Assembly: GCA_903905585.1 (NCBI GenBank)
Contig: CAIVHB010000051.1
Coordinates: forward strand, 8,856-72,855
Direction of reading: 5' to 3'
Source: an uncultured Ferrovum sp.
GTDB lineage: Bacteria; Pseudomonadota; Gammaproteobacteria; Burkholderiales; Ferrovaceae
DNA length: 64,000 bases
Part shown: piece by piece, positions 662-62,051 of the stretch
Position numbering within the stretch: the first letter of the stretch is position 1
How the letters are laid out: the number at the start of each line of letters is the position of its first letter
Translations under genes and position numbers: made by a program
Notes under the pieces: model-generated
What the model saw: only the letters and a program-made list of their open reading frames with translations
What the model was told of the DNA's origin: nothing
Databases searched by the model: none

Positions 662-664
662 CCA

Positions 665-1941: not shown

Positions 1942-2898
1942 ATGTCTGAACTGCTAAAGAGCATCGATGCCCGTACCCGACTCGCCGGGACGAATAAGCT
2001 TGAAATTTTGCTTTTTACCCTTGGGCTGGATCAACGAACGGGCCGCCGTGAAACTTTTGGTATTAATGTTTTCAAGGTTCGCGAAGTCATGCGCACCCCG
2101 GAAATCACGCGTGCGCCTGATATGCCTCCCGGTATTGAAGGTATGGTGAGTTTGCGCTCTCAGTTGACCGCGGTGATTGATTTAGCAAAGTTCGCTCGAG
2201 TTCAGACCGCCACGCCTCCGGAGATTATGATTGTCACGGAGTACAACGGACATTCCCAAGGTTTTTTAGTCGAAGCCGTTGACACCATTCTTCGACTGGA
2301 TTGGGCCATGATGAAAGTCCCTCCAGACATGATGAGTGCGGAGATGGGGGGGATGGTCACCGCAGTGACAGAACTAGAAGATGGTCGCATTGTAATGATG
2401 TTAGATGTCGAAAAAATTCTTTCTGAGACGATGCATTCAGATCACGAGATTATTTTTCGTAACATCAGAGCCATCAATCATGAGTCTGAGCGAACGGTAT
2501 TTTTTGCTGATGACTCTAGTGTGGCCAGAAAGCAAATGGAGCGCACGCTTGATGCAATGCATGTGAAGCATTTGTCCGCGATCAATGGAAAAAAAGCATG
2601 GGAAGAACTCAAGCGTGTTGCTGAGTACGCCGATGCGCAAAATATTACCGTCAGTGAACTCATTCAGCTCATCATCACTGATGTCGAAATGCCAGAAATG
2701 GATGGATATACACTGACCAAACTCATTAAGAGCGATGCACGATTTGCTCATATTCCAGTCCTCATGCATTCCTCATTGTCGGGTGACTCTAACGACAAAC
2801 ATGGAAAAGATAATGGAGTGGATGAGTACATCTATAAATTCGAGCCACAACGCCTTGCAGAAGTCGTTACGCGCTTTTTGGTTGGAGGTTCTAACTAA
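1942..2898 (+). CDS. cheV: Chemotaxis coupling protein CheV (CheW-like domain plus receiver domain), copy 1
   Basis: The N-terminal CheW-like fold is present (LEILLFTLG...FGINVFKVREV). The C-terminal REC domain has DDS...ITDVEMPEMDG...HSSLS. Confidence 0.9.
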   Translation: MSELLKSIDARTRLAGTNKLEILLFTLGLDQRTGRRETFGINVFKVREVMRTPEITRAPDMPPGIEGMVSLRSQLTAVIDLAKFARVQTATPPEIMIVTEYNGHSQGFLVEAVDTILRLDWAMMKVPPDMMSAEMGGMVTAVTELEDGRIVMMLDVEKILSETMHSDHEIIFRNIRAINHESERTVFFADDSSVARKQMERTLDAMHVKHLSAINGKKAWEELKRVAEYADAQNITVSELIQLIITDVEMPEMDGYTLTKLIKSDARFAHIPVLMHSSLSGDSNDKHGKDNGVDEYIYKFEPQRLAEVVTRFLVGGSN

Positions 2899-3854
2899 TG
2901 GCTTCTACCGCATCCTTTGAAATTCCATCCTCAGGGAATTTGCTTGAATCCGTTGATGCAAGAACAAAACTTGCTGGTTCTAATAAGCTTGAGATACTTC
3001 TGTTTTCATTAGGCACTTCCGAGATATTTGGTATTAATGTCTTTAAGGTGAGAGAAGTTTCTAAAACCCCTTTCATTACTAAAACACCCAATATGCCTTT
3101 TGGCATGGAAGGCGTCATTTCTTTACGTGGAAAAATTGTTCCTGTTGTGAATCTGGGCAGCATTGTGAAATTGCGCTCTGAAGCTGAATCTGCAGGCGCT
3201 TCAATGTTAGTCATGGAATATAACCGCAGAGTATTGGGCTTCTTGGTTGATCAAGTCGATCGAATTATTCGTGTCGAATGGTCTGATGTGAAACCCCCTG
3301 AATCTTTGTTGACCGGTGATCATGGGATGATCACGGCGATTACCCATCTTGAGGGCGGTAAGCTCGTGTCTATTCTAGATGTGGAAGAAATCCTGGTGAA
3401 TACTTTTGGTGAAGAGCACAAGCCAGAACTAGAACCCATGGATTCTGCTGAGAACTGCACAGTATTCTTCGTTGACGATTCTAATGTTGCACGACGTCGT
3501 ATCATTGAAGTGTTAGAAAAAATTGGCGTGAAGCACAAACAAGCTACGAATGGCTTAGAGGCCTGGGAGCGCTTGCAAGGTGAGGCTGCTTTTGCAGAAC
3601 AGCATGGTATGCCATTATCAGATCAAATCAGATTGATCATGGTCGATGCTGAAATGCCTGAAATGGATGGTTATGTGTTAACCCGAAATATTAAAAGTGA
3701 TCGGCGCTTTCAAGGTATTCCCGTTGTGATGCACTCCTCTCTCTCCTCCGAAGCAAACCGCACTATGGGGCAGAGTGTCGGGGCAGATGCGTACGTGGCA
3801 AAATTCGATCCACAAATCCTTGCAGAGACTCTGCGTCCCTTACTGTCGCGATAA
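2898..3854 (+). CDS. cheV: Chemotaxis coupling protein CheV, copy 2 (tandem paralog)
   Basis: It has the same 318-aa length and architecture as copy 1 (LEILLFSLG...FGINVFKVREV; VDAEMPEMDG...HSSLS). Its start codon overlaps the copy 1 stop by 1 nt (TAATG). Confidence 0.9.
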   Translation: MASTASFEIPSSGNLLESVDARTKLAGSNKLEILLFSLGTSEIFGINVFKVREVSKTPFITKTPNMPFGMEGVISLRGKIVPVVNLGSIVKLRSEAESAGASMLVMEYNRRVLGFLVDQVDRIIRVEWSDVKPPESLLTGDHGMITAITHLEGGKLVSILDVEEILVNTFGEEHKPELEPMDSAENCTVFFVDDSNVARRRIIEVLEKIGVKHKQATNGLEAWERLQGEAAFAEQHGMPLSDQIRLIMVDAEMPEMDGYVLTRNIKSDRRFQGIPVVMHSSLSSEANRTMGQSVGADAYVAKFDPQILAETLRPLLSR

Positions 3855-7206: not shown

Positions 7207-7346
7207 AACGCGCTGAATAAGCCCGTTTTTCACTTCTTCCTCTGACCTTTGTTTTTTGAGTTGGCACTTGATAATCGTTTCACGATGATCGTGTTAACCG
7301 AGCCATGGGGGGTCGGAGCCGTCATCGTGACGGAGTCTTGGCCACC

Positions 7347-8597
7347 ATGGCTGAAGAAAGTGATTTAGAAAAAACGGAATCGCCCTCACCGCGAAGACTA
7401 GAACAAGCGCGAGAAGAGGGACGTGCGCCACATTCGCGAGAGCTGGCATCGTTCTCGGTTTTATTTTCCGCAATTGTAGGCCTTGCCATCATTGGCGAAT
7501 CGCTGGCCTCTGCGATGCGCCGCGATCTAAAAGCTGGCCTGACCTTTGATCACAGCTTAGTGCTGCATCCAGAGTGGATGACTGAGCGCTTGGGTGAAAT
7601 GTCCATGTCTACGGTTGGCTCGCTCCTACCTTGGTTAGGCGGCATCTTCCTTTTCGGCAGTCTGATTCCCTTGACCATGTCCGGTTTTCTTTTTTCTACA
7701 AAAAATTTCATGCCCGATTTCTCGCGCCTTTCTCCTGCGCGTGGCTTGGGCAACATGATGTCAGTATCTGGTTTGGTGGAATTGGTTAAAGCCATTCTTA
7801 AAGCCGCATTGATTGGTGGTTTGGCCGCATGGTTTCTATGGAGCAGCGAGGGGACAACCCTAGGACTGGCCAATTTGGATGTTGGTCAGGGCGTGACAAC
7901 GGGGATTGATTTAATGCGTCGCTGTATGTACGTATTACTTGCTGGCTTAGCTGCGGTAGTGGCGATTGATGTGCCTTTTCAGCTTTGGCGTCATCACGAT
8001 AGTTTGAAAATGACGCGCGAAGAGTTAAAGCAAGAAGCCAAAGAAACAGATGGTGATCCCCATGTGAAGGCCCGTATTCGCCAACAGCAACGTGCCGCAG
8101 CGCGCCGTCGCATGATGAGCGAAGTGCCCAAAGCGGACTTTGTGGTCACTAACCCAACTCACTACGCCGTCGCATTAAAATATGATTCAACCATGCGCGC
8201 ACCTAAGGTGGTCGCTAAGGGCGGTGATCTGATTGCGCTCAATATTCGTGCACTAGCTGAGAAGCACAGCATTCCAATTCTTGAGCAACCGCCACTTGCC
8301 CGTTCACTTTACAAACATACTCAACTTGAGCAAGAAATACCTCCAGCATTGTATTCCGCTGTGGCAGAGGTACTTGCCTATATTTTCCAACTGCGTGCCT
8401 TTGAGAGTGGTAAAGGCGCCTATCCTAATCAACCCCGTACAGTTGATGTTCCTGTTGAATTAGCGGTGCCCGCCACCCCGGGTGTCATGGATGAAGACTC
8501 CGAGTCTTTGGATGCCTCTAGCACCAGCCTACAGACCCCGAGCGGTACCTTAGGTGCGATCTCTAGTATTCAAACAGGTGGGGTACTGAGCGTATGA
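7347..8597 (+). CDS. flhB: Flagellar export apparatus switch protein FlhB
   Basis: The canonical N-terminus MAEESDLEKTESPSPRRLEQAREEG begins at ATG 7347 (the tracked ORF starts earlier, at 7305). The NPTH autocleavage site is present (VVTNPTHYAVALKYD). There is a ~60-aa acidic/Ser-rich C-terminal tail. Confidence 0.92.
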   Translation: MAEESDLEKTESPSPRRLEQAREEGRAPHSRELASFSVLFSAIVGLAIIGESLASAMRRDLKAGLTFDHSLVLHPEWMTERLGEMSMSTVGSLLPWLGGIFLFGSLIPLTMSGFLFSTKNFMPDFSRLSPARGLGNMMSVSGLVELVKAILKAALIGGLAAWFLWSSEGTTLGLANLDVGQGVTTGIDLMRRCMYVLLAGLAAVVAIDVPFQLWRHHDSLKMTREELKQEAKETDGDPHVKARIRQQQRAAARRRMMSEVPKADFVVTNPTHYAVALKYDSTMRAPKVVAKGGDLIALNIRALAEKHSIPILEQPPLARSLYKHTQLEQEIPPALYSAVAEVLAYIFQLRAFESGKGAYPNQPRTVDVPVELAVPATPGVMDEDSESLDASSTSLQTPSGTLGAISSIQTGGVLSV

Positions 8598-31576: not shown

Positions 31577-32947
31577 TTAAGCAAAAGTATCCAATAGGCC
31601 ACGGTAAATCTTTGTTGCGCTACCCGAAGCAACCAAGCTGGGCACCGCTGTTGCGCCTTCCCCTATGGTGTTTAAAGAGGATGCACTTGATCGGCTACCG
31701 GCTGCGTCTTGATCTTGATTTTGTTGCGAAGATTGGGCAAATTGGCCGCTTAAGTCAGGCTGAACCTGAGTTTGCCCTAATTCTAGTCCTGCTTGGGTAA
31801 ACATATCTCTGAGCTGGGGTAAGCTGGCTTCAATGGCTTGGCGAACTGCTTCATGCGGGGATACGAAAACGGCAGAAGCTTGGTCGTGTTTTAAATCTAA
31901 GGTGATTTGAATAGGCCCTAAGTGCTCAGGGTTGAGGTTGAGTTGTGCAGAACCCATCTGGTTTTTTGCAATAAATAGCGCTTGTTGTCCTAATGCAGCA
32001 GCCCAAGGCCCTTCTCCTAATGCGGGTGCGATGGAGAGCGACGAACTGCCTGTTGGGCTCGTTAAGCTTGCAGTCTCACCCATGGTGTTTGCTGCGCTAT
32101 TTTCTTGCAGCCCCTCTGCGTAGATCAGATCTTGAGATGCATCAGGCTGAGCGCTGAGATGGTTGAGCCCGCTTGTGTTGCTCAATGCTGAACTGCCTCC
32201 AATACTAGCCAGCGCGCCTCCTGCCACTGGCAGAGAGTTTGAACCGTTGATCGCTGGGTTTTGAATGCTCGTTACCATGGCTTGTGCAAAATGACTTGCG
32301 TTCATGACTTCAGATTGGCTTTCTGCTAAAACATTGTTAGGGTTATTTGTTGCGCCATCCATAGGTAGCCCTGCTAAAAAAGCTTCTTGGCTTGCACTTA
32401 ATCCATGCACGTTGGACTGAGCAGCCCGGGTGCTGTTGTCAGGGGTGGGAGCTGGGTTTTGAGTGGGGTCGGTTTGTGTTGCATTTGCTTGGGCCGTTTG
32501 CGTATTGCCCATCGCTGAGCTTGAATCGTTGGTTGCAGATGAGGGAGCAGAACTAGATTGACTGGTATCTGCTGTGGGGGAAGCGGTGCTAGATGCGTCA
32601 TGATTGACTGGGGTATGGGTTTTATCTTTAGTCTTTTTGGGGTCATGAGGTTTATGAGCCTCATTGGCTTGCTTAAGGGTGGATTCATTTGCATTTTGAA
32701 CCGATCCATCTTGCAGATTTGCGCCAGCAGAAAAAGAGGGATTTGGTCGATGCGCTGCATGGGTTGAAAAACGAGAAGCATCGGCGAGTCCCAAAGATTG
32801 AGTCATGTTTATCTGGGATTGGGAGTTGACTAAGGCATCGGAAAACAGGCTGCCAAAAGAAGTGTTTGAACTCGCAGTCTTATCCATTAAATGGGTCTTA
32901 TTCGAGACATTAACTGCAGGCGCTAAAGATGAAGCAATGGTTGTCAT
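31577..32947 (-). CDS. fliK: Hook-length control protein FliK
   Basis: Position between fliJ and fliL. The N-terminal and central regions are disordered and Ser/Thr/Ala/Gln-rich. The C-terminal Flg_hook/T3S4 domain is present (AQLNLNPEHLGPIQITLDL...ASLPQLRDMFTQAGLELGQTQVQP). Confidence 0.88.
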   Translation of the reverse strand: MTTIASSLAPAVNVSNKTHLMDKTASSNTSFGSLFSDALVNSQSQINMTQSLGLADASRFSTHAAHRPNPSFSAGANLQDGSVQNANESTLKQANEAHKPHDPKKTKDKTHTPVNHDASSTASPTADTSQSSSAPSSATNDSSSAMGNTQTAQANATQTDPTQNPAPTPDNSTRAAQSNVHGLSASQEAFLAGLPMDGATNNPNNVLAESQSEVMNASHFAQAMVTSIQNPAINGSNSLPVAGGALASIGGSSALSNTSGLNHLSAQPDASQDLIYAEGLQENSAANTMGETASLTSPTGSSSLSIAPALGEGPWAAALGQQALFIAKNQMGSAQLNLNPEHLGPIQITLDLKHDQASAVFVSPHEAVRQAIEASLPQLRDMFTQAGLELGQTQVQPDLSGQFAQSSQQNQDQDAAGSRSSASSLNTIGEGATAVPSLVASGSATKIYRGLLDTFA

Positions 32948-38435: not shown

Positions 38436-38640
38436 AGTATTTATGCCATTTGATGGTTATCTAGCGGGTCAGGGCATCAACTTAATGTGCCCTATTCGCA
38501 ATTCATGAATCACATTATTACGCATTGTCAGCGCATCCTAATTGCATGATAAGAAGGGAGTAAAACCCCTTTATTGAGCTCTAGATTCAAGGATTAGGGA
38601 GGCAAAATGGCAGTCATCGAACATAGAAAAGGTGCATCAC

Positions 38641-39129
38641 ATGCCCATTTCAGGAATCTCTAGCAGCCCCTCGGTTGGTATTGATCAAATTTTGGCTCAG
38701 ATCCGTCATGTCAAGGCTAGAACGCAATCTCCTACCCTGGGCGCTGAAGCCAATGGTGCTGGCCCTGCGGGTGCGGGGCCAGCGAGCATCGTGAACTTGG
38801 GTTCTGGGTCAGTTGGGCAACCCAGTCAGGCACTGAATGCGCTCAGAAACAACGCACTTAATGTGTCTGGCGTTCAAGGGGTGGGAGATGCTGCGCCCGC
38901 AGCCCCGGGTAGTTTTATGAGTTCGCTGAAAGCCTCGCTAGATCAAGTTAATAACAGTCAGAACAAAGCTTCAGAGTTAGGTCAATCGTTTGAAAAGGGC
39001 GATCCTAACGTGGATTTAAATGATGTGATGGTAGCGGTTCAGAAAGCCAATGTGAGTTTTCAAACTGCTGTGCAAGTAAGAAACCGAATGGTTTCTGCCT
39101 ACCACGACATCATGAATATGCAGATTTAA
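38641..39129 (+). CDS. fliE: Flagellar hook-basal body protein FliE (N-terminally extended)
   Basis: The FliE C-terminus is present (SFMSSLKASLDQVNNSQNKA...DLNDVMVAVQKANVSFQTAVQVRNRMVSAYHDIMNMQI). ATG 38641 is preferred; GTG 38632 is possible. Confidence 0.9.
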   Translation: MPISGISSSPSVGIDQILAQIRHVKARTQSPTLGAEANGAGPAGAGPASIVNLGSGSVGQPSQALNALRNNALNVSGVQGVGDAAPAAPGSFMSSLKASLDQVNNSQNKASELGQSFEKGDPNVDLNDVMVAVQKANVSFQTAVQVRNRMVSAYHDIMNMQI

Positions 39130-39136
39130 TGATTGT

Positions 39137-39559
39137 TTAGGTAAAACGCGAACGACTTTGCGCTTTCTTTCTTTCTTGGGCCTGAATGGTGCGTCTGACA
39201 AAGCGCTCGTCTTCTGCATTTAAGTCCTCTACAGAACACCCATAACGCCAAATGGTGTTGCCATCTGTTTGCAGCTCTTCTTTAACGTGCCGAAGTATGA
39301 GGGTGAGTGCCGCTCGATCAATGGCATTAAATTCTAGGTAGCAATTTGGAATGGGTTCTCCGACCGGAAGCGCCGTAATTTTTTCGGTGCTTTCAAAGCT
39401 AAGCCCCCCTTCGCTTAAATCCATCACTCTAAAAAAACAGTTTTCTCCCAGAACAGATTCCGGAAATTCGACGATGGGAACATTTCCTAAACCCAGCGCA
39501 ATACGATATGTTTCGCGTTTTTGCGCGATGCTTTCTGCGGGAGACGAGATATCTTTCAA
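39137..39559 (-). CDS. Stand-alone PilZ-domain protein (predicted c-di-GMP receptor)
   Basis: Both PilZ signature motifs are present: RxxxR (KRETYR) near the N-terminus and D-x-S-x-x-G (MDLSEGG). The TTG start has a strong GGAGG 5-6 nt upstream and overlaps the upstream stop (TTGA). Confidence 0.75.
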   Translation of the reverse strand: MKDISSPAESIAQKRETYRIALGLGNVPIVEFPESVLGENCFFRVMDLSEGGLSFESTEKITALPVGEPIPNCYLEFNAIDRAALTLILRHVKEELQTDGNTIWRYGCSVEDLNAEDERFVRRTIQAQERKKAQSRSRFT

Positions 39560-39930
39560 GTGACCTCCGGTTTGGGAAGGGAAAGGGTGGGGGGGGTGTC
39601 TTTGGCAGCCTGTCCCGAATCAAGATAATGCAACCAAGCAAGTAGTTCAGCTACGGCACGATATAACGAGGTGGGAATGTGCTTGTCAAGATCTACTTGA
39701 ATAAGCAGGGCCACGAGTTCTCTCGATTCATGCACATAAACGCCATGCGCTTTGGCGCGCTCAATAATGGCATCAGCAAGCATTCCTCTGCCCTTGGCGA
39801 CGACTCTAGGAGGCCCGCGTTCGGCGTCGTATGCCAGCGCTACAGCCTGCTGTCGCGCGCGCAGCCCCGCCTCGTCAAGATCAAAGTGCTCTTCAGACAA
39901 CTTTACTCTCGATGTCTTTAGGTTGAACAC
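39556..39930 (-). CDS. FlhB C-terminal-domain-like soluble protein (FlhX/YlqH-like)
   Basis: It aligns with this window's FlhB from just after the NPTH site (AVALAYDAERGPPRVVAKGRGMLADAII..A...........IPTSLYRAVAELLAWL versus AVALKYDSTMRAPKVVAKGGDLIALNIR...IPPALYSAVAEVLAYI). It has no TM region and no NPTH site. The start is uncertain (GTG 39930 or TTG 39900). Confidence 0.75.
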   Translation of the reverse strand: MFNLKTSRVKLSEEHFDLDEAGLRARQQAVALAYDAERGPPRVVAKGRGMLADAIIERAKAHGVYVHESRELVALLIQVDLDKHIPTSLYRAVAELLAWLHYLDSGQAAKDTPPTLSLPKPEVT

Positions 39931-40783
39931 TTAATTGTTCGGTGCGAATTCCTGCATCTTGCAGCCGTGTACCCAAAACAGGAAGGGCAAGTTTCATCTT
40001 TGAAACTTGCAAAGCATCGGTGATGAGACTGATTTGACAGCCTTGGGGGCCCAATCTTAATTCTGCTAAGACTTCTCCCAAATGGGGTAGCGAAAGTTTG
40101 AGGGTACTTTTCCAGTGGATGGGTGACGAGCCCGCACCATGTTCCTGGTCGCCATGCGGATATACATCATCCGGCTGAACTGACCATTGTAGGTCTTGCC
40201 CCGGCCAAATTTGGCCTTGCCAAGGAATCACTTGAGAGTCTAAGGATTGCAACTGTTGCTGCAAAACTCCCAGTGATTGAGGGTGAATGGTGCGGGTGAG
40301 GCTGGCGGTTAGCGTGTGAGCGTTTTGCAGAAGATCATGTGTTGGCCCTGAAGGAAGCACGTCTGGCCGAGGTTTTGTGGGGCGGTCAAGTTGCGCTTGC
40401 GGTTCTTGTAAAATCTGAGTTTGTGAGCGTAAGCCTGATACCCAGTCAGCCAGATGGGATTCATAAAATATCCCAGAATTTGAGAGTGCATGAGACAAAA
40501 CGTGTGCGAGATCGGCTGTGCTCTGATCTCCTGATACTGCAGGGCTGCCAAGCAGTGCTTGGGTTTTAACTGTTTCCTCATTTTGAGGAAGCGTGATGCC
40601 CAAAATAGATTCGATGAGTTGTCCTGTTCTGGAAAGTTCTAAGCCAGACAGTTCATTTGCTACCGCTTGAGATAATTCGACACCAGATGGCACGTTTTGT
40701 GGGGCAACGCTCAAGGCAGAATCTATTGCATGGCCAGAAACAACCGGGCCTACGGCAGAAACTCCCGAGAGCGCATCAACCAT
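39893..40783 (-). CDS. FliK C-terminal (Flg_hook/T3S4)-like protein, second copy
   Basis: The C-terminal ~65 aa (STLKLSLPHLGEVLAELRL...LALPVLGTRLQDAGIRTEQLSVQP) parallels the true FliK in this window (AQLNLNPEHLGPIQITLDL...ASLPQLRDMFTQAGLELGQTQVQP). The ATG lies 1 nt after the fliT stop. Confidence 0.65.
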   Translation of the reverse strand: MVDALSGVSAVGPVVSGHAIDSALSVAPQNVPSGVELSQAVANELSGLELSRTGQLIESILGITLPQNEETVKTQALLGSPAVSGDQSTADLAHVLSHALSNSGIFYESHLADWVSGLRSQTQILQEPQAQLDRPTKPRPDVLPSGPTHDLLQNAHTLTASLTRTIHPQSLGVLQQQLQSLDSQVIPWQGQIWPGQDLQWSVQPDDVYPHGDQEHGAGSSPIHWKSTLKLSLPHLGEVLAELRLGPQGCQISLITDALQVSKMKLALPVLGTRLQDAGIRTEQLSVQPKDIESKVV

Positions 40784-40784
40784 T

Positions 40785-41117
40785 TTAGTGCATACCTGAA
40801 CCGTAAGCCTTATTGAGTTTTTGTTGCGAACCCGTTGAATGGATCAGTTCTTGTAATTCATCCATCCAAGGTTGCGTTTCACGACGAATGGCGGTGTCGT
40901 CGGCTAAAATTTTGCGCAGTAAATCGAGTTTTTCAAGTTTCAAGGCAGGGTCTAGTTCAACCTCAGCCTCTGATTCCATCAGAGCATGTGTGAGGGGGCG
41001 GCACTGGTTTTCAAGATCTTGCAGGTGCTGCCAGTCTCGTCGCTTAGCCGCATTCACCATAGCGCCCATGATTTGAGAAATACCGTTGTAAATACTGATC
41101 ACTTCTACTGGGGTCAT
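40785..41117 (-). CDS. fliT: Flagellar chaperone FliT (FliD chaperone)
   Basis: It lies immediately downstream of fliS. The C-terminus (ILADDTAIRRETQPWMDELQELI...QQKLNKAYG) resembles enteric FliT ([23 protein letters not shown]...QKSVLSAYG, recalled from memory). ATG 41117 avoids overlap with fliS; the tracked ORF extends to 41198. Confidence 0.7.
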   Translation of the reverse strand: MTPVEVISIYNGISQIMGAMVNAAKRRDWQHLQDLENQCRPLTHALMESEAEVELDPALKLEKLDLLRKILADDTAIRRETQPWMDELQELIHSTGSQQKLNKAYGSGMH

Positions 41118-41125
41118 ATGAGCGC

Positions 41126-41566
41126 TCACACCGTAGCCGATTTCATCGATTGCAATCCTACAGGCTTTTGCCTGCGTTTGGGTGTGATTGCACTCCATGC
41201 CGATTCTAGTTCACCCAGTAATCCATCCACTTCAACTAGTTTTGAGCGATCGTTATGAATGTTGGCCTGAGAAAGACAAAATTGCATATATTCATATAGT
41301 GAAGAGAGACGATCTGCCATCTGGGGATCGGCTTTCCAACTTAAACTTTGATTAAGACCTTCAGAAATAATAGAGATTGCACGGCCAATATTTAAGCCTT
41401 TAGCTGCAATGTCCCCTTGTTCCAGCGCAAACATAGCTCTGCCCACCGCAAAGCGCGCTCCTTCAAACAACATGGCCACTAATTGATGGGGGTCTGCATT
41501 CATGACACCCGTTTCAACTCCAGTCTCTTCATACGCTCGTGCGCCACGTAAATGTGATCCAAACAT
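41126..41566 (-). CDS. fliS: Flagellin chaperone FliS
   Basis: The FliS core is present (YEETGVETGVMNADPHQLVAMLFEGA......A....I.AKG..I.RAISII.EGL..SL). ATG 41566 has GGGAG 9 nt upstream; the tracked ORF extends to 41662. Confidence 0.9.
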   Translation of the reverse strand: MFGSHLRGARAYEETGVETGVMNADPHQLVAMLFEGARFAVGRAMFALEQGDIAAKGLNIGRAISIISEGLNQSLSWKADPQMADRLSSLYEYMQFCLSQANIHNDRSKLVEVDGLLGELESAWSAITPKRRQKPVGLQSMKSATV

Positions 41567-41698
41567 CTTATCTGCTCCCGATCTGCTGGAAGGGTGTATG
41601 CGCTTCAGGGTTGCTCTCATTGCGGCCTTATATAAAAGAATACAATCTTTCGAGCCGTCCACTCAAACTACCCCGGCGCATTTGCCCAGGTAATTCAG

Positions 41699-41927: not shown

Positions 41928-41954
41928 TAAAGTTTTTTTTCTGTCATCCGTTAA
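41928..41954 (+). promoter_or_regulatory. Sigma-28-type promoter, fliC P2 (proximal)
   Basis: TAAAGTTT-N11-TCCGTTAA is the best match in the window to TAAAGTTT-N11-GCCGATAA. It lies ~130 nt upstream of the fliC ATG. Confidence 0.65.
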
Positions 41955-54378: not shown

Positions 54379-54861
54379 TTATAAGAATCGGTCTAGTAGT
54401 TTTCGGCTGTTTCGATCTAAGGCAAAGCGATCTCTAATTCGGTAAGACACCCCATGTCTATCCATAATCAAGAGTGCGCGATCAGGAAGACGTCGAATAT
54501 CTTCTTCTGCTTGAAGAATGAATTGGGTTTGTCCCCGGTCAGTATTGACGGTCCAGGTGGAGGGGGTAGAGAAACTGGCTACGGATACAATTTGCTGAAT
54601 CTCCGGCATCAATTCTCTGGCTTCTAGGGCGTCTTCAATGAGCGTCCGTGCGGGGGGGGGAATCGTGTCGATGTCTTCAATCCAAACCAGTTCAGTTCCG
54701 GTGGAAGAAACCAGTGACCAGTGCTGACGCGGGGCACTCAAAGGGTAAGCGCGTATAGGTGCAATCTGGTTATAACGAATACCTTCAGCGTCAGTCAGAC
54801 CAAGGTGGCCAAAGTGATCTAGCCAGACAGTCCAGTTTGAGGGGGTAAGTTGTCTCGTCAT
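54379..54861 (-). CDS. DUF1854-family protein (partner of the cyanophycin-associated ABC transporter)
   Basis: A 160-aa protein with a 4-nt overlap with the upstream ABC gene. The C-terminus (LDRNSRKLLDRFL) and overall pattern match my recollection of DUF1854. The family call is from memory, not from a search. Confidence 0.6.
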   Translation of the reverse strand: MTRQLTPSNWTVWLDHFGHLGLTDAEGIRYNQIAPIRAYPLSAPRQHWSLVSSTGTELVWIEDIDTIPPPARTLIEDALEARELMPEIQQIVSVASFSTPSTWTVNTDRGQTQFILQAEEDIRRLPDRALLIMDRHGVSYRIRDRFALDRNSRKLLDRFL

Positions 54862-57125
54862 GAGGTTTGATCCTCTAGATGCGTTTCAGTGGTTCTTAAT
54901 TGGGCTTGGTATAGGCGCCAATACGCACCTTTTTGTTCGATCAGTTCATCATGAGGGCCTACCTCAATAATACGACCGCGCTCCATGACCACAAGACGAT
55001 CTGCTTTCCGAAGCGTGGATAAACGGTGAGCGATGGCGATGGTCGTTCTCCCTTTCACCAGATTATCTAAAGCCCGCTGAATTTCTTTTTCTGTTTCGGT
55101 GTCGACCGAAGAGGTGGCCTCATCCAGGATTAATACTTTGGGGTTAATGAGCAGAGCACGAGCAATCGATATCCTTTGGCGTTCTCCACCTGATAAGCCC
55201 TGACCGCGTTCACCCACTACTGAGTCATATCCATGCGGAAGTCGCAAAATAAAATCATGGGCATGGGCTGACCGCGCAGCAGCAATGATTTCTTCGCGTG
55301 ATGCATCGGGGCGTCCGTAGGCGATATTCTCAGCAATGCTGCCAAAAAATAGAAAAGGCTCTTGCAACACGAGGCCAATATTTCGGCGGTAATCAGCGAG
55401 CGTAACAGAGCGAATATCGGTACCGTCAATCAGGATAGAACCTTCACTGACATCATAAAATCGACAAATCAGATTGACTAAGGTGCTTTTGCCAGAGCCA
55501 CTTTGACCTACTAGTCCAATCATTTCACCGGGTTGAATCACCAGTGATAGATCCCGAATGACAGAGCGGCTGCCATAACGAAAACCGATTTCTTTTAGGG
55601 TGATTTCGCCCTTTATATTTTCTAATGGTATGGGTTGGCTGGAATCGGGCACATTAGAAACATGATCCAAAATATCGAAGATACGTTTAGACCCCGCTGC
55701 CGCTTTTTGGGTTACGGATACGATGCGGCTCATTGAATCTAGGCGGCCATAGAATCTTCCGATGTAAGCCAAAAAGGCCGTTAAGGTCCCCACGGTAATC
55801 GCGCTGATGGATACTTGATATATTCCAAAAGCCCATACGACCAACAAGCCACCCTCGGTCATCAGCGATACGGTAGGGGAGAACAAAGACCAGGTTTTGT
55901 TAAGCCTGTCATTGATCAGCAAATTGTGTTGATTGGCTTCACGAAATCGCTGCGTCTCACGTTGCTCCTGTGCAAAAGCTTTGACCACGCGAATGCCAGG
56001 TATGGTGTCAGACAATACATTGGTGACTTCTCCCCAGACTCGATCAATTTTTTCAAAACCAGTTCGCAGCCGATCGCGTACCTGATGAATCATCCAGGCA
56101 ATGATGGGCAATGGCAGCAGCGTAACAAGCGCTAAGGCGGGGTTAATTGAAAATAAAATGACGGCAGTCATCACGATCATCAAAATGTCCGTAATGAAAT
56201 CCAGCGCATGCAAAGAGAGAAATACGCTAATCCGATCTGACTCAGAACCGATTCTGGAAATCAAATCTCCTGTTCGCTTGCTACCAAAATATTCAAGAGA
56301 AAGATGTAATAAATGTTCATAGGTAGTGGTGCGAAGATCCGCACTAATTCGCTCTGAAACCAAGGCAAGAATGTAGGTTTTAGCCCAGCCCAGTCCCCAC
56401 GACACCAGTGCTGCAGCCAATAGGCCGCCAAGATATAAACCTACTTTTTCGGGCTCAATGTGTTGACCGGATTGGAAGGGAATTAACACTTCATCCATCA
56501 GTGGCATGTATAGGTAGGGCGATACGAGTGTGGACGCCGTCGCCCCCAACATCAGCAAAAATCCAATCAGCAATTGTTGCCAATAGGGTTGAGCAAAACG
56601 CCACAACCTAAATAGTGTCCATGTGGAAGGGGGTAAAGTGACTTCTCTGCTACAAACCGGGCACTCGCCTTCTTCGGAGTTGAGGGGGGTTCTGCAAGTG
56701 GGGCAGAGCAGTTCACTGTCATCCTCGGGCCGCACTTGAGTTTTAAGGAATTGCTGCTCAATTTGAAACCGCTCTAGCAGTCTTAGTGATTGCTTATGCT
56801 GCCCTAAGGTAAAGCGCCAGAGCGCTAAGCGCGCTGTTTGGCTACGAAGCTCCAGGGTTCCGATCCCTGCGTAGTCAAATACCTTCAGTTCTAGTTCATC
56901 TGCGAGAGGCCATTTTTCCCAAGCGTTTTCAGCATGATTCCACGCTAATAAGTGTTTTTCTGTCACAGCTACAAGAGAGTGGATAAACTGACCATTAAGA
57001 TCAAGGTCAACCTGCAGTGCCGCTAGGGCGTTCTCTCCTGAATTGAGTTCAAGCGCCAAGCGCTTTTCCCAAAAGGTAGGCAGTCCAAGGTTTGTGTTGG
57101 AAACGAGGGTGACTTCAGTGTTCAT
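54858..57125 (-). CDS. Fused ABC exporter (TMD plus NBD) with an extra N-terminal domain and a Cys4 zinc ribbon
   Basis: Walker A (GQSGSGKST), signature (LSGGERQR), Walker B (ILILDEATS), and a six-TM exporter domain. An N-terminal ~165-aa extension carries CPTC...CPVC. Confidence 0.9.
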   Translation of the reverse strand: MNTEVTLVSNTNLGLPTFWEKRLALELNSGENALAALQVDLDLNGQFIHSLVAVTEKHLLAWNHAENAWEKWPLADELELKVFDYAGIGTLELRSQTARLALWRFTLGQHKQSLRLLERFQIEQQFLKTQVRPEDDSELLCPTCRTPLNSEEGECPVCSREVTLPPSTWTLFRLWRFAQPYWQQLLIGFLLMLGATASTLVSPYLYMPLMDEVLIPFQSGQHIEPEKVGLYLGGLLAAALVSWGLGWAKTYILALVSERISADLRTTTYEHLLHLSLEYFGSKRTGDLISRIGSESDRISVFLSLHALDFITDILMIVMTAVILFSINPALALVTLLPLPIIAWMIHQVRDRLRTGFEKIDRVWGEVTNVLSDTIPGIRVVKAFAQEQRETQRFREANQHNLLINDRLNKTWSLFSPTVSLMTEGGLLVVWAFGIYQVSISAITVGTLTAFLAYIGRFYGRLDSMSRIVSVTQKAAAGSKRIFDILDHVSNVPDSSQPIPLENIKGEITLKEIGFRYGSRSVIRDLSLVIQPGEMIGLVGQSGSGKSTLVNLICRFYDVSEGSILIDGTDIRSVTLADYRRNIGLVLQEPFLFFGSIAENIAYGRPDASREEIIAAARSAHAHDFILRLPHGYDSVVGERGQGLSGGERQRISIARALLINPKVLILDEATSSVDTETEKEIQRALDNLVKGRTTIAIAHRLSTLRKADRLVVMERGRIIEVGPHDELIEQKGAYWRLYQAQLRTTETHLEDQTS

Positions 57126-57225
57126 GTAAAGCTCGCTTTGTCAGCGCGCGATGAGTGGGTATCATGGGTCGAAACTGTAACATAGCGCTGCTCGGACTCC
57201 GACAGCTGTATTCGATGATAGGACG

Positions 57226-59436
57226 ATGAGCGACAAAGATATTACGTTCCTGAGGGTCATGCATTTGCGGGGCCCCAATATATGGACTTACCGACCTGTT
57301 ATCGAGGTTTGGCTCGATATTGGCCGCTTTGAACAGTTTCCTTCTCATACCTTGCAAGGCTTTAACCAGCGCCTCACTGATTGGTTGCCAGGCTTGGCTC
57401 AGCATCGATGCGGTGTGGGGGAGCCAGGTGGTTTTCTATTGCGCTTAGATGAAGGGACTTGGATTGGTCATATATTAGAGCATGTGGTGTTAGAGCTTCA
57501 GACGCTTGCTGGAATGAGAACCGGGTTTGGTAAAACGCGGCAAGTTAAAGAAGGCAGTGGCATTTACAAAATGGCTTTCCGAACTCGAAACGAAGCAGTG
57601 GGCAGAATGGCACTAGAAGAGGCCAGAGCGCTTGTTTTAGCTGCGGTGAATGATCAACCCTATGATGTTGCGGCAACCGTTATTAAGTTAACCGATATGG
57701 TGGATTCGCTCTGCCTTGGCCCCAGCACCTCTTGCATTGTTGAGGCTGCGGGTGAACAACGTATTCCCTTTATACGACTCACAGAAGGCAATCTCGTGCA
57801 ACTTGGTCATGGTTCTCGGCAAAGAAGAATCTGGACGGCTGAAACAGATCGAACCTCGGCCATCGCTGAATATATTTCTAGCGATAAAGATCTCACTAAA
57901 AGTTTACTTTCTTCCTGCGGTGTGCCGGTTCCTGCTGGCCGAATCGTTGAAAGTGCAGAAGAAGCGTGGGAAGAGGCTCAAGATTTAGGACTCCCTGTAG
58001 TCATTAAGCCTGTTGATGGTAATCACGGCCGGGGTGTGTCGATTGAATTAAGCACAAAAGCACATATTGAAGAAGCATTTGAACTGGCTCTCAGACATGG
58101 AAGCGAAGTGATTGTTGAGCGCTTTATTCGGGGTAACGAGCATCGTCTGCTGGTGGTGGGCGGAAAGGTGGTGGCCGCTGCACGCGGAGAGTCAGCTTGG
58201 GTAAGAGGTGATGGAGTCGCTAGTATTCAAGAATTGGTTGATCGCCAGCTGAATACAGATGGTCGCCGAGGTCATGGCGAAGATTTTCCTCTCAATCGAA
58301 TTGATTTAGACCAAGATGTTGCGATCCAACTTGAATTAGCTCGCCAAGGATTTGATCTTCATTCCGTTCCTGAAAATGGGACAGAGGTATTAATTCAGCG
58401 CAACGGGAATGTGGCGATTGATTGTACGGATGAAGTGCATGCAGACATTGAAGCGCTCGTAGTGCTCGCTACACAAGTTGTTGGACTCGATATTGCTGGC
58501 GTAGACATGGTGGTCGAGGATATTAGTAAGCCATTGGTTGAGCAGGGTGGAGCCATTGTGGAGGTGAATGCAGGCCCTGGGTTGCTCACGCATCTCAAAC
58601 CTGCGGTGGGCTATCCTAGACCGGTTGGTGGCGCCATTATTTCTCACCTCTTCCCTAAAGGTGATCGCGGAAGGATCCCCATTGTTGGGATCATGGGAAC
58701 TTCACACACGACAGAAATTGCCCGTTTGGTGGCTTGGCTGCTGCGTTTATCGGGTGAGAAAGTGGGCTTGGCCTGCCAGGAAGGTCTGTTCCTTGACCGA
58801 CGCCAAGTGAGTACACGCAATAGTGTGAACTTTGATGCAGGGCAGCGCTTACTGATGAATCGCACGGTTTCTGCCGTGGTGATTGAGAGTGATGTCAAGG
58901 CTGTTTTGAAAGAAGGCTTGTCTTATGACCGCAGCTCAGTCGCCATTGTGACGGATACGCATGGAGCTGAGTCTTTAAGTGAGTTTTTGATCTCCGAAGA
59001 CCAACAAGTTTTTGATGTCATGAGAACCATGGTGGATGTTGTCCTTCCAGATGGTTTCGCAATATTGAACGCCGCTGAGCCTTCGGTAATGGGGATGGCT
59101 CCGCTGTGCGATGGGACAGTTATTTTATATCACGCTTCTGAAAATCTGGCTGCCATTATTGAGCACAGGAGCAATCATGGACGGGCTGTATTTGTTCGAG
59201 AGGGACAGGTCATCTTGGCGCGCGGAAAAGAGGAATTGACCTTAAATGCCCTAGGAAGCTTGAAATTGAATGGGAGTGGGGTGCTCTTCGAAAATACTAT
59301 CTTGGCGGCAGCAGCAGCCACTTGGGCAATGGGACTTCCACCCGAACTTATTCGAGCTGGTATTGAAACTTTTGAGGCAGAACATGCTTTAGCTCAATCT
59401 CCGGAGTCTTCTGGAAAAGTGAAAAAGAAAAAATAG
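57226..59436 (+). CDS. Cyanophycin synthetase paralog with a truncated/degenerate Mur-ligase (M) domain (CphA'/CphA2-like)
   Basis: The CphA N-domain and an intact ATP-grasp domain are present (VVIKPVDGNHGRGVS). The M-domain P-loop GTNGKTT is replaced by GTSHTTE. The protein ends where the C-terminal Mur subdomain (DYGHNP) begins in the neighbouring CphA. Confidence 0.85.
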   Translation: MSDKDITFLRVMHLRGPNIWTYRPVIEVWLDIGRFEQFPSHTLQGFNQRLTDWLPGLAQHRCGVGEPGGFLLRLDEGTWIGHILEHVVLELQTLAGMRTGFGKTRQVKEGSGIYKMAFRTRNEAVGRMALEEARALVLAAVNDQPYDVAATVIKLTDMVDSLCLGPSTSCIVEAAGEQRIPFIRLTEGNLVQLGHGSRQRRIWTAETDRTSAIAEYISSDKDLTKSLLSSCGVPVPAGRIVESAEEAWEEAQDLGLPVVIKPVDGNHGRGVSIELSTKAHIEEAFELALRHGSEVIVERFIRGNEHRLLVVGGKVVAAARGESAWVRGDGVASIQELVDRQLNTDGRRGHGEDFPLNRIDLDQDVAIQLELARQGFDLHSVPENGTEVLIQRNGNVAIDCTDEVHADIEALVVLATQVVGLDIAGVDMVVEDISKPLVEQGGAIVEVNAGPGLLTHLKPAVGYPRPVGGAIISHLFPKGDRGRIPIVGIMGTSHTTEIARLVAWLLRLSGEKVGLACQEGLFLDRRQVSTRNSVNFDAGQRLLMNRTVSAVVIESDVKAVLKEGLSYDRSSVAIVTDTHGAESLSEFLISEDQQVFDVMRTMVDVVLPDGFAILNAAEPSVMGMAPLCDGTVILYHASENLAAIIEHRSNHGRAVFVREGQVILARGKEELTLNALGSLKLNGSGVLFENTILAAAAATWAMGLPPELIRAGIETFEAEHALAQSPESSGKVKKKK

Positions 59437-59456
59437 CCAAGCCACTCAGGAAATTT

Positions 59457-62051
59457 ATGGAAATCTCTAAAATACGTGCTTTGCGTGGCCCTAATCTCTG
59501 GAGCAGACATACCTCTCTAGAGGTCATTGTGAATTGTGATCAATCTGAGCAAGATATTTTTTCCTTGCCGCATTTTGAGGAACGTATTCGCAATCGTTTT
59601 CCTCAATTAGCCGATTTGCAATCTCGGCAACTTCCTCGCCCAGTCACCGTAGCGCATGTCTTAGAGCTTGCCATGCTGGGTTTGCAGGCTCAAGCAGGCT
59701 GCCCTGTTACTTTTAGCAGGACCCAAACGACGAGCGAATCAGGAACATACCAAGTCATCGTAGAGTACTCAGAAGAACCCGTGGGAAAGATGGCATTAGC
59801 GTCTGCCGAGGCTTTGATTCATGCGGCCTTTAATGACAGCACCTTCAATCTGGAAGAAGTATTGTCGAACTTACAAGAACTGGATGAGGATGTTCGTCTG
59901 GGGCCTTCTACAGGTGCGATCGTTCATGCTGCTTCTGCTAGAGGGATTCCCTTTCGAAGATTAACCTCAGGAAGCCTGGTTCAGTTTGGTTGGGGTTCGC
60001 GCCAACGGCGTATTCAAGCTGCAGAAATGGATTGTACATCCGCGATTTCAGAATCCATAGCGCAAGATAAAGAGTTAACCAAGCGCCTGCTGGAAGCAGC
60101 AGGTGTGCCCGTGCCCACTGGTCGCCCTGTGAGAGACGCTGAAGATGCTTGGGCTGCGGCACTTGAAATAGGTTTGCCGGTGGTGGTGAAGCCGCAGGAT
60201 GGTAATCAGGGAAAGGGGGTCACGGTGAATATCGATGATCGTGAGCCTTTAGAAATCGCGTACTCGGTTGCCAGTGAGTTTCGCGACGATGTGATGGTAG
60301 AAAAATATCTCGCGGGCCATGACTATAGGTTGCTGGTGGTCGGTGACAAACTCGTTGCCGCTGCACGTCGTGAGCCCCCTATGGTCGTAGGCAATGGCAA
60401 GCAAAGTATTCGTGAACTGGTTGAGCAAGTGAATGCAGATCCTCGAAGAGGAACGGGTCATGCCACCTCATTGACTAAGATTCGCTTGGACGAAATCGCT
60501 ACCGCTCAGCTTGCCATGCAAGGGTTCACTGCAGACTCCGTGCCCGATAAAGGGGAGCGCGTTGTTCTGAGAAATAACGCTAATCTTTCAACAGGTGGAA
60601 CTGCAACAGACGTCACCGATGATGTGCACCCCGAATTGGCAGCGCGTGCCGTGGATGCAGCGCACATGGTGGGATTGGACGTATGTGGGGTGGATGTGAT
60701 TTGCGATACCGTTCTTAAACCTCTAGAAGCTCAGGGCGGAGGCATTGTGGAGGTGAATGCAGCGCCTGGTTTACGTATGCATCTTTCTCCTTCGTTTGGT
60801 AAAGGCCGAGATGTAGGGGCAGCGATTATTGGTAATCTGTTCCCAGAAGGTGAAGATGGGCGGATACCTGTTGTGGCGGTAACCGGTACGAATGGAAAAA
60901 CCACCACGGTCAGGCTCATTGCGCACCTTTTAACGGCAAGTGGCTTGCGCGTTGGGATGACTAATACCGATGGGGTTTATGTGAATGGTAGGCAAATCGA
61001 TAGTGGTGATTGCGCCGGGCCTAAAAGTGCCAGAAATGTATTGCTGAATCCAACCGTCGATGCAGCAGTATTTGAAACCGCTCGAGGTGGTATTTTGCGA
61101 GAGGGCTTGGCCTTTGATCGATGCCAAGTGGGCGTGGTCACGAATATTGGAAGTGGCGATCATCTGGGCCTGAATTATATTAGTTCGGTCGAAGATCTTG
61201 CGGTGTTGAAGCGAGTGATTGTGCAAAATATTTCACCGGATGGTATGGCGGTTCTAAATGCCGCAGACCCTATCGTTGTTCCGATGGCTGAAAACTGTCC
61301 GGGCAAGGTCACCTTTTTTGCGGTGGATCGCCATTTACCGGTGATGGCTGCGCATCGTGCCCGAGGAAAGCGCGTCGTGTATGTGGAAGAAGGTGCTGTG
61401 ATCGCTGAAGAAGGCGCAAAAAAATTCGCTATTCCGCTCAAGAATATTTCAGTGACGCGTGAGGGTGCGATTGGCTTTCAACTGCAAAATGTGATGGCTG
61501 CAGTCGCTGCAGTTTGGGCCGTGAACTCCGACTGGTATTCCATTTCTCAAGGGCTTTTTACCTTTAGGGCTGAACAACACAACGTTCCTGGAAGGTTTAA
61601 TTTCTTTGATTACAAAGGCGCTACAGTGATTGCTGATTATGGGCATAACCCCGATGCCATGAAGGCCTTGGTCGAGGCAGTTGAGGCCCTGCCTGCTCAA
61701 CGCCGCATGGTTGTAATCAGTGGTGCTGGGGATCGTCGTGACGATGATATTCGCGATCAAACGCGCATTTTGGGAGCCGCTTTTGATCATGTATTGCTGT
61801 ATCAAGATGCCTGTCAGAGAGGGCGTGTAGATGGTGAGGTGATTGCGCTCTTGCGCGAGGGGTTAGAGGGAGCAACCCGCACTCAAACAATAGAAGAAAT
61901 TCGTGGTGAATTTGTAGCGATTGATATGGCTTTGCAAGCGCTACAGGCGGGAGATTTATGCTTGATTTTGGTAGATCAAGTAGAAGAAGCGCTTGCCCAC
62001 ATTGCGCAGCGCGTGAAGGCATCCCTCTCAGAAAATAACATGACCCACTGA
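59457..62051 (+). CDS. cphA: Cyanophycin synthetase CphA (full length, 864 aa)
   Basis: N-domain, ATP-grasp domain (VVVKPQDGNQGKGVT), and a Mur-ligase domain with an intact P-loop (VTGTNGKTTT) and C-terminal subdomain (DYGHNPDA). Confidence 0.93.
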   Translation: MEISKIRALRGPNLWSRHTSLEVIVNCDQSEQDIFSLPHFEERIRNRFPQLADLQSRQLPRPVTVAHVLELAMLGLQAQAGCPVTFSRTQTTSESGTYQVIVEYSEEPVGKMALASAEALIHAAFNDSTFNLEEVLSNLQELDEDVRLGPSTGAIVHAASARGIPFRRLTSGSLVQFGWGSRQRRIQAAEMDCTSAISESIAQDKELTKRLLEAAGVPVPTGRPVRDAEDAWAAALEIGLPVVVKPQDGNQGKGVTVNIDDREPLEIAYSVASEFRDDVMVEKYLAGHDYRLLVVGDKLVAAARREPPMVVGNGKQSIRELVEQVNADPRRGTGHATSLTKIRLDEIATAQLAMQGFTADSVPDKGERVVLRNNANLSTGGTATDVTDDVHPELAARAVDAAHMVGLDVCGVDVICDTVLKPLEAQGGGIVEVNAAPGLRMHLSPSFGKGRDVGAAIIGNLFPEGEDGRIPVVAVTGTNGKTTTVRLIAHLLTASGLRVGMTNTDGVYVNGRQIDSGDCAGPKSARNVLLNPTVDAAVFETARGGILREGLAFDRCQVGVVTNIGSGDHLGLNYISSVEDLAVLKRVIVQNISPDGMAVLNAADPIVVPMAENCPGKVTFFAVDRHLPVMAAHRARGKRVVYVEEGAVIAEEGAKKFAIPLKNISVTREGAIGFQLQNVMAAVAAVWAVNSDWYSISQGLFTFRAEQHNVPGRFNFFDYKGATVIADYGHNPDAMKALVEAVEALPAQRRMVVISGAGDRRDDDIRDQTRILGAAFDHVLLYQDACQRGRVDGEVIALLREGLEGATRTQTIEEIRGEFVAIDMALQALQAGDLCLILVDQVEEALAHIAQRVKASLSENNMTH

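Follow-up and report, generated by a model that had tools for sequence, protein, structure and literature searches.

A YcgR-type PilZ protein without a PilZN domain at the end of a late flagellar operon of an uncultured Ferrovum: a candidate stator-only brake

Which part of the flagellum is controlled by a single-domain PilZ protein whose gene ends an operon of late export chaperones? The question is raised by the pilZ gene in a stretch of 64,000 nucleotides (the window) from an uncultured Ferrovum sp. (contig CAIVHB010000051.1). From the position of this gene behind that of an FlhB-C-like protein, a first-pass annotation had deduced an input of cyclic di-GMP (c-di-GMP) into late flagellar export or chaperone traffic rather than a motor brake, or else a special partnership with the FlhB-C-like protein. 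Our analysis led to a different account, which we consider probable on balance. In this account, the protein would be the C-terminal half of the flagellar regulator YcgR after loss of its PilZN domain, acting as a c-di-GMP-loaded brake or clutch on the stator only. The gene and its start region are located as follows.

39137-39559, minus strand: pilZ (ycgR-C), encoding a single-domain PilZ protein of 140 amino acids from a TTG start; a YcgR orthologue without PilZN
39556-39568, minus strand: translation start region of pilZ, with GGAGG at 39564-39568, a 4-nucleotide spacer and TTG at 39557-39559

The open reading frame is a real gene under purifying selection, because its ratio of nonsynonymous to synonymous substitutions (dN/dS) is low and the start/stop overlap and Shine-Dalgarno sequence were kept in orthologues. 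The dN/dS was 0.11-0.17 against three orthologues (L001, L003 and L004), with dS ranging from 0.37 to 2.6. The start region has the sequence CCGGAGGTCACTTGAAAG on the coding (minus) strand, in which TCAC separates GGAGG from TTG. The first-pass annotation, which did not name the strand, had recognized the GGAGG correctly but placed it 5-6 nucleotides before the TTG, where the spacing is 4 nucleotides. The overlap of the TTG with the upstream stop codon was found as described, forming a TTGA motif at the end of the FlhB-C-like reading frame (flhX, 39556-39930), whose TGA stop lies at 39556-39558. All three orthologous loci retained this overlap; L003 and L004 also retained the GGAGG, whereas L001 has the weaker GGAGC.

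A run of eight C was observed on the coding strand at 39589-39596 in the 3' end of flhX, about 30 nucleotides upstream of the pilZ start, and was absent from L001, L003 and L004. A slip in this run would alter the FlhX tail and break the stop/start coupling of pilZ; it could equally be a sequencing-prone tract.

The PilZ protein comprises the following elements.

39503-39517, minus strand: RxxxR c-di-GMP motif, R15-E-T-Y-R19; Q13, R15 and R19 invariant across 23 sequences
39404-39421, minus strand: [D/N]hSxxG c-di-GMP motif, D47-L-S-E-G-G52; D47, S49 and G52 invariant among the 23 aligned sequences
39227-39475, minus strand: six-stranded beta-barrel core of the PilZ domain, residues 29-111 of the AlphaFold2 (AF2) model
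39149-39217, minus strand: C-terminal alpha-helix with a basic end, residues 115-137 of the AF2 model, homologous to the YcgR C-tail helix

Both c-di-GMP motifs named in the first-pass annotation are present and intact in the 140-residue frame (KRETYRIAL and D47-L-S-E-G-G52). The RxxxR motif is followed by the hydrophobic pattern of canonical PilZ domains (RxxxRhxh, here R19-I-A-L), and its distance to the second motif, 27 residues after R19, is normal for the family (about 20-30). The first Arg of the common RRxxxR is replaced by Lys (KRETYR). A Pfam search of the protein returned PilZ (PF07238; 21.0 bits, E 4e-4) and no PilZN (PF07317). Against a profile of full-length YcgR proteins the frame gave an E value of 7e-29, matching hidden Markov model positions 131-256 of 257 only, which bears out the absence of PilZN claimed in the first pass. 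A split or separate PilZN reading frame was found neither in the 64-kb window nor in the flanks of the orthologous loci, and no PilZ or PilZN frame other than pilZ was present in the window.

The relatives of the protein indicated the same identity. A word-indexed homologue search recovered five close relatives of 139-140 amino acids with 59-99% identity, and an exhaustive HMMER search with the profile of these five returned 108 proteins. Beyond one more short form (P0006, 141 amino acids), nearly all matches had about 250 amino acids and were aligned through their C-terminal halves only; those that were checked carried PilZN and PilZ, the architecture of YcgR. In the Joint Genome Institute (JGI) annotation, the relatives of 139 amino acids are called 'c-di-GMP-binding flagellar brake protein YcgR'. 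When the short clade was compared by hhalign with a profile of 20 full-length YcgR-type proteins, none of them from this clade, a probability of 99.7% and an E value of 1e-26 were obtained, with query residues 12-134 aligned to profile columns 142-265 of 275.

The AF2 model contained strands at residues 29-31, 42-47, 52-57, 69-76, 82-96 and 102-111 and a helix at 115-137, without inserted helices. It matches the canonical PilZ fold of six strands with an alpha-helix at the C terminus, as defined together with the [D/N]hSxxG motif by Galperin and Chou (bioRxiv 10.1101/814665). The top Foldseek match was the E. coli entry 5Y6G, 'PilZ domain with c-di-GMP of YcgR', followed by MrkH, PP4397/FlgZ, 5Y6F (full-length YcgR) and MotI, the top matches all being PilZ domains. 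Searching PDB sequences with the narrow profile of the clade gave nothing meaningful; matches were obtained with a broader profile and by the fold search. Because the hhalign result, the match to the full-length profile, the modelled fold and the 5Y6G match agree, the window protein is best placed as the C-terminal half of YcgR, consisting of the RxxxR-bearing interdomain linker, the PilZ beta-barrel and the C-tail helix. Its C-terminal end reads ...QERKKAQSRSRFT. The basic tail pointed out in the first-pass annotation is present, but it corresponds to the end of the YcgR C-tail helix, a MotA-binding element in E. coli (PMC12713396, PMC10140304).

Compared with YcgR from E. coli and from Salmonella and FlgZ of Pseudomonas (PP4397/PA3353), the window protein has a homologous PilZ domain, RxxxR linker and C-tail helix. 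It differs in its length (140 against about 245-260 amino acids), in the Lys replacing the first Arg of RRxxxR, and in the absence of PilZN and hence of the FliG-binding patch (E. coli D54). Both ycgR, a last-tier gene of the flagellar regulon, and flgZ, which ends flgAMNZ, belong to the late flagellar genes; for the window gene a similar membership is predicted from gene order.

The pilZ gene is located between the following genes.

39556-39930, minus strand: flhX, an FlhB paralogue with the C-terminal domain only, directly upstream of pilZ and overlapping it
39893-40783, minus strand: fliK2, a short FliK-like protein with a C-terminal Flg_hook domain (Pfam Flg_hook, E 5e-8)
40785-41198, minus strand: fliT, late export chaperone (Pfam FliT, E 1e-23)
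41126-41662, minus strand: fliS, flagellin chaperone and first gene of the operon (Pfam FliS, E 8e-30)
38632-39129, plus strand: fliE, convergent with pilZ (Pfam FliE, E 8.5e-30)

The assignment of flhX is based on Pfam Bac_export_2 (profile positions 262-335 of 335, E 2e-17) and TIGR00789 flhB_rel (E 3.5e-22). The real start of fliT is probably near 41117, giving 110 amino acids as in the gene calls of relatives, and that of fliS is probably the ATG near 41566; FliS of relatives was called at 146 amino acids. The genes fliS-fliT-fliK2-flhX-pilZ are packed on the minus strand with overlaps or gaps of at most 8 nucleotides, and pilZ is their last, translationally coupled cistron, as the first-pass annotation stated. 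The context given there needs one correction, in that pilZ lies close to rotor genes. The stop codons of pilZ and fliE are 7 nucleotides apart (39129-39137), and beyond fliE the minus strand encodes fliFGHIJ, with fliF and fliG directly adjoining, and a canonical fliK.

The inheritance of this arrangement was analyzed by comparing orthologous loci. Each of the 17 short-form loci that were recovered, with 41-99% identity (L001, L003-L008 and L016-L023, some from the same contigs; L030 excluded) displayed the order flhX-pilZ-|fliE wherever the contig extended far enough. The co-occurrence with flhX-like genes, which the first-pass annotation had suggested checking in relatives, was confirmed in these loci. 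The convergent arrangement with fliE was conserved in all loci, and the spacing of only 7 nucleotides between the two stop codons was conserved in the clade. Only one true relative was found in the genome-contig scan, a Ferrovum metagenome-assembled genome (L001; Betaproteobacteria, Ferrovales) with 66% identity; the metagenome scan used the narrower alignment A3 in place of the more diverse A2. The short form persisted across lineages down to 41-43% identity (P0006).

Full-length YcgR occupies the same slot in other relatives. The closest full-length relative (P0007, 257 amino acids, PilZN and PilZ) is encoded at locus L009 in the order fliS-fliT-fliK2-flhX-ycgR, with an ATGA start/stop overlap of 4 nucleotides. 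In L024, L025, L026, L015 and L028, a full-length YcgR follows flhX directly or converges on fliE, and PilZN was confirmed in the YcgR of the first three. The layout in Sphaerotilus sulfidivorans (CP035708.1) is fliS-fliT-ycgR-|fliE, without fliK2 or flhX, and that in Cupriavidus metallidurans CH34 (L030), where the genes were assigned by phmmer, is fliS-fliT-fliK2-flhX-|fliE, without ycgR. The pilZ gene is a positional orthologue of the full-length ycgR genes in this slot; therefore, its linkage and coupling to flhX predate the loss of PilZN. The linkage to flhX is also dispensable, because flhX stands there without ycgR in Cupriavidus and ycgR without flhX in Sphaerotilus.

The most economical history assumes a betaproteobacterial layout fliS-fliT-(fliK2-flhX)-(ycgR)-|fliE from which the part encoding PilZN disappeared in a single small clade. 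In the ancestor, the fliS-fliT-fliK2-flhX operon would have ended in a translationally coupled, full-length ycgR, and an in-frame deletion in a small Ferrovum-related betaproteobacterial clade would have removed PilZN and kept the start context. The short protein starts about six residues before the conserved linker Pro (PxxxxxQRRxxxR), so the deletion appears to have been clean, with the coupled start retained. As far as searched, the PilZN-less YcgR orthologue was confined to this clade. No description of the fliK2-flhX-ycgR synteny or of the layout as a whole was found in a limited literature search, which is weak evidence that the synteny is undescribed.

Two further candidates for an independent loss of PilZN were rejected. 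The apparent stand-alone PilZ protein P0021 (134 amino acids) was an artefact caused by a stretch of N within the scaffold, its locus (L028, 702-1398) encoding a full-length YcgR with PilZN and PilZ downstream of fliK2-flhX. The gene of P0016 adjoins pilMNOP and a LapD-like gene and not flagellar genes. At L015 (655-2286), on a metagenomic contig, two tandem full-length ycgR paralogues (276 and 263 amino acids) were observed between flhX and fliE.

The history of the slot bears on the export role deduced from gene order in the first-pass annotation. According to this interpretation, the PilZ protein would feed c-di-GMP into late export through FlhX, FliK2, FliS/FliT or the FlhA/FlhB gate and not into motor rotation, and would modulate the substrate-specificity switch or filament-type secretion. 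Such a role would agree with the translational coupling of pilZ to flhX at the end of the chaperone/fliK2/flhX operon and with the flhX-pilZ order, which was seen throughout the recovered short-form loci and at several loci with a full-length ycgR. Moreover, with PilZN lost, the contact to the rotor is gone, and the protein could have been free to take up another partner. However, the coupling was inherited from a full-length YcgR ancestor, as in L009, and Sphaerotilus and Cupriavidus each have one of the two genes at the slot without the other; a special pairing of the PilZ protein with the FlhB-C-like protein is not supported either. The surfaces that are conserved serve YcgR in binding c-di-GMP and MotA, and action on the export gate is not known for any PilZ protein. 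In Pseudomonas putida, fliK2-flhX and flgZ are located at opposite ends of the flagellar cluster (bioRxiv 10.1101/2021.08.29.457346). We therefore regard a role in export as quite unlikely.

The placement in a late chaperone/flhX operon is no argument against a motor brake, because known brakes also sit among late genes, the coupling is inherited, and ycgR and flhX are separable. Pseudomonas flgZ, for example, is the last gene of flgAMNZ, beside the gene of the FlgN chaperone (bioRxiv 10.1101/2021.08.29.457346). The position of pilZ would reflect joint expression with the late flagellar genes, without pointing to a new function in export. A more elaborate version holds that the loss of PilZN released a YcgR derivative from the rotor and that, together with co-translated FlhX and FliK2 at the export gate, it lets c-di-GMP tune the secretion of late substrates (filament growth), instead of or besides controlling motor torque. 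We consider this version very improbable; if it were true, the flagellar type III export switch would for the first time be seen to receive a PilZ input.

The gene pair upstream of pilZ resembles fliK2-flhX of P. putida (PP_4328/PP_4329), which likewise encodes a short Flg_hook FliK-like protein and an FlhB-C-only protein, and the window FlhX, restricted to the FlhB C-terminal domain, can also be likened to FlhX of Helicobacter pylori. In P. putida the pair is a FliA-dependent late operon of unknown function (bioRxiv 10.1101/2021.08.29.457346). It forms an operon of its own there, without a PilZ gene and with flgZ elsewhere in the cluster, whereas the window pair is embedded between fliT and the ycgR-derived gene. 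The pair (39556-40783, minus strand) coexists in the window with a canonical full-length flhB (7305-8597, plus strand) and with fliK (31577-32947, minus strand).

The surfaces by which YcgR acts on the stator were then considered. The predicted target is encoded at the start of the window.

1-1681, plus strand: motA, truncated by the start of the window, and motB, encoding the stator predicted as target (Pfam MotA_ExbB; MotB_plug and OmpA)

The PilZ domain of E. coli YcgR, which has been crystallized in isolation with c-di-GMP (5Y6G), binds MotA through the RxxxR region (F117) and the C-tail helix (E232), the latter being exposed by c-di-GMP (PMC10140304, PMC12713396). The C-tail contacts the same MotA residues as the torque helix of FliG (PMC12713396). 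The N-terminal domain, YcgR-N, makes the contact to FliG (D54), and inhibition in E. coli depends on it (PMC10140304, PMC12713396). Both MotA-contact residues have candidate equivalents in the window protein, the first of them variable among relatives. Alignment to 5Y6F placed Y18 at F117 and E129 at E232, the latter within ...SLEREAREK, and E129 and R130 were invariant in the short clade. The loop of the window MotA translates as ...AKVRKEGLMSIEND... and matches the R90/G93/S96/E98 region of E. coli MotA; the window MotA is of the E. coli type with a conserved contact loop.

A c-di-GMP-dependent brake or clutch that binds the stator only, co-expressed with the late flagellar genes, would thus be the most likely function. 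The account draws on homology, motifs, fold, synteny and purifying selection; that the protein binds c-di-GMP and MotA, that it affects torque and that its gene is co-transcribed are predictions. The PilZ protein would be made together with the late flagellar proteins, as the tight operon packing suggests. At high c-di-GMP it may bind the nucleotide through R15/R19 and D47/S49/G52, in view of the intact, invariant motifs and the 5Y6G structure. By homology to E. coli YcgR, the loaded protein would dock on the cytoplasmic loop of MotA through the flank of RxxxR (Y18) and the C-tail helix (E129), where competition with the FliG torque helix could lower torque or disengage the stator. Without PilZN the YcgR-N contact to FliG would be missing, so that the protein would be a stator-only clutch or competitive inhibitor and not a rotor-stator bridge. 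The action proposed here is that of the clutch MotI/DgrA (YpfA) of Bacillus subtilis, which binds MotA in a c-di-GMP-dependent manner and so disengages or inhibits the stator (PMC8203827). MotI was also a structural match in Foldseek (5VX6). It differs in having two domains (PilZNR and PilZ) and is distant in sequence (E 3.5e-4 against profile A2).

Binding to MotA without a bridge to FliG is not necessarily inhibitory, and a positive effect on the motor would be conceivable, the apo or bound form stabilizing or recruiting stators as FlgX does or promoting the motor at low c-di-GMP as MotL does. Campylobacter FlgX, a tetrameric PilZ-family protein, binds the cytoplasmic face of the stator and is required for motility (PMC11725899), and MotL promotes lateral motor function at low c-di-GMP (PMC8203827). 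However, PilZ proteins of the tetrameric FlgX/XCC6012 type assemble into tetramers by means of two additional helices and have usually lost the c-di-GMP motifs (bioRxiv 10.1101/814665), whereas the window protein is canonical, with intact motifs and no such helices in the AF2 model. Furthermore, the binding of the E. coli YcgR C-tail to MotA residues contacted by the FliG torque helix (PMC12713396) predicts competition and not stabilization. A positive effect is therefore unlikely.

Several observations weigh against a stator-only brake. The main weakness is that mutations of E. coli YcgR-N abolish motility inhibition despite an intact MotA-binding helix (PMC12713396, PMC10140304); a YcgR without PilZN is thus predicted to be inactive in E. 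coli, and a protein with PilZ alone may brake poorly or act in another way. Strict conservation is not seen at Y18, the residue being Y, H, F or I among relatives. The AF2 model, built on an alignment of six sequences, reached only moderate confidence (mean predicted local distance difference test score, pLDDT, 75.6). No GGDEF or EAL domain was seen among the 26 window reading frames scanned, which comprise about half of the larger frames, those outside roughly 8.6-33 kb. A FliA-type search found no promoter of the fliS operon, and sigma-70 and terminator scans performed no better than on shuffled sequence. Finally, the Pfam PilZ score of 21.0 bits is 1.5 bits under the gathering cut-off of 22.5. 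This shortfall appears to reflect divergence and not absence of the domain, because clade-independent profiles match at E 7e-29. The related P0006 scores 27.1 bits, and P0002-P0005 carry a precomputed PF07238 match, flagged 'weak' for P0002 and P0005.

The sub-threshold Pfam score and the requirement for the lost domain in E. coli would also fit a decaying, functionless remnant of ycgR, or one that does no more than buffer c-di-GMP passively. Decay to a pseudogene was rejected in view of the dN/dS and the conservation of the motifs. The dN/dS stayed at 0.11-0.17 at dS up to 2.6, the short form persists to 41-43% identity with all motif residues invariant, and the overlapping start codon was kept in L001, L003 and L004, with the Shine-Dalgarno sequence in L003 and L004. 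A remnant without function is accordingly hardly credible.

In its architecture, one domain of 140 amino acids encoded in a flagellar cluster, the window protein also agrees with the stand-alone flagellar PilZ regulators MotL (Shewanella, 144 amino acids), DgrA (Caulobacter), McrA (Sinorhizobium) and FilZ (Pseudoalteromonas). These likewise have a single PilZ domain (about 100-145 amino acids) with intact c-di-GMP motifs, are encoded in or beside flagellar clusters and regulate flagellar motility (PMC8203827, PMC10304486). The first-pass annotation named YcgR, FlgZ and MotI/DgrA as known flagellar PilZ effectors acting on the rotor or stator; its list omitted this group. The group is defined by function and architecture, not by descent, and was compared with the window protein by description. 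MotL follows motAB, and c-di-GMP-free FilZ acts by way of a CheW homologue; the window gene follows flhX, and all nearest relatives found in the HMMER search were of the YcgR type.

A stand-alone PilZ adaptor retargeted to another motility component, such as a chemotaxis protein or the level of FliL, was considered on these grounds. Precedents are MapZ with CheR1, FilZ with its CheW homologue, and the FliL levels proposed for Caulobacter DgrA, and stand-alone PilZ proteins of flagellar clusters are known to work by way of such partners (PMC10304486, PMC8203827). The window encodes possible partners (two CheV, CheA, CheY, CheZ, a methyl-accepting chemotaxis protein and FliL-region genes), and a new interface could be formed by EFPES and LEFNAIDR, two invariant motifs specific to the clade. 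However, the window protein is clearly derived from YcgR, whereas MotL reportedly bears no noticeable similarity to it (PMC8203827). The candidate equivalents of the YcgR residues contacting MotA are retained, and no specific linkage to che genes was seen. We consider an adaptor of this kind doubtful.

Stand-alone PilZ regulators are already known from flagellar clusters (MotL, DgrA, McrA, FilZ; PMC8203827, PMC10304486), and what is new is a YcgR orthologue that naturally lacks PilZN. Current models of YcgR action, among them the 'Texas 2-step', separate MotA binding by the PilZ domain and C-tail from FliG binding by YcgR-N, with the N-domain required for inhibition in E. coli. The Ferrovum-related clade has kept only the half for MotA binding, long under purifying selection, and thus provides a natural separation-of-function variant. 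It could show whether stator binding alone suffices for motor control by c-di-GMP, and whether the effect is on speed or on rotational bias. The predicted inactivity of a PilZN-less YcgR in E. coli is also what makes the variant interesting, as a natural test of the two-step model and not as a new kind of system.

Some other observations concern the neighbourhood of pilZ. With the pilZ and fliE stop codons so close, a terminator of either gene must lie within the other, and the transcripts probably overlap as antisense. FliE is unusually long (165 amino acids), with the Pfam match at residues 87-165 and an N-terminal extension of about 85 residues rich in Gly, Ala, Ser and Pro; it was called at 150-162 amino acids in relatives and at 112 in Sphaerotilus. 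A FliA-type promoter-like site was seen on the plus strand at 41928-41954, about 130 nucleotides upstream of fliC, consisting of TAAAG, a spacer of 14 nucleotides and TCCGTTAA; no comparable site was found for the fliS operon, which is divergent from fliC. An Rfam search of the window returned no RNA family. Directly upstream of cheY-cheZ-cheA, two tandem cheV genes (1942-3854, plus strand) each encode 318 amino acids with a CheW domain and a receiver domain. Outside the flagellar region, at 54379-62051, a DUF1854 protein and a fused ATP-binding cassette (ABC) transporter are encoded on the minus strand, adjoined on the plus strand by two cyanophycin-synthetase-like genes of 736 and 864 amino acids.

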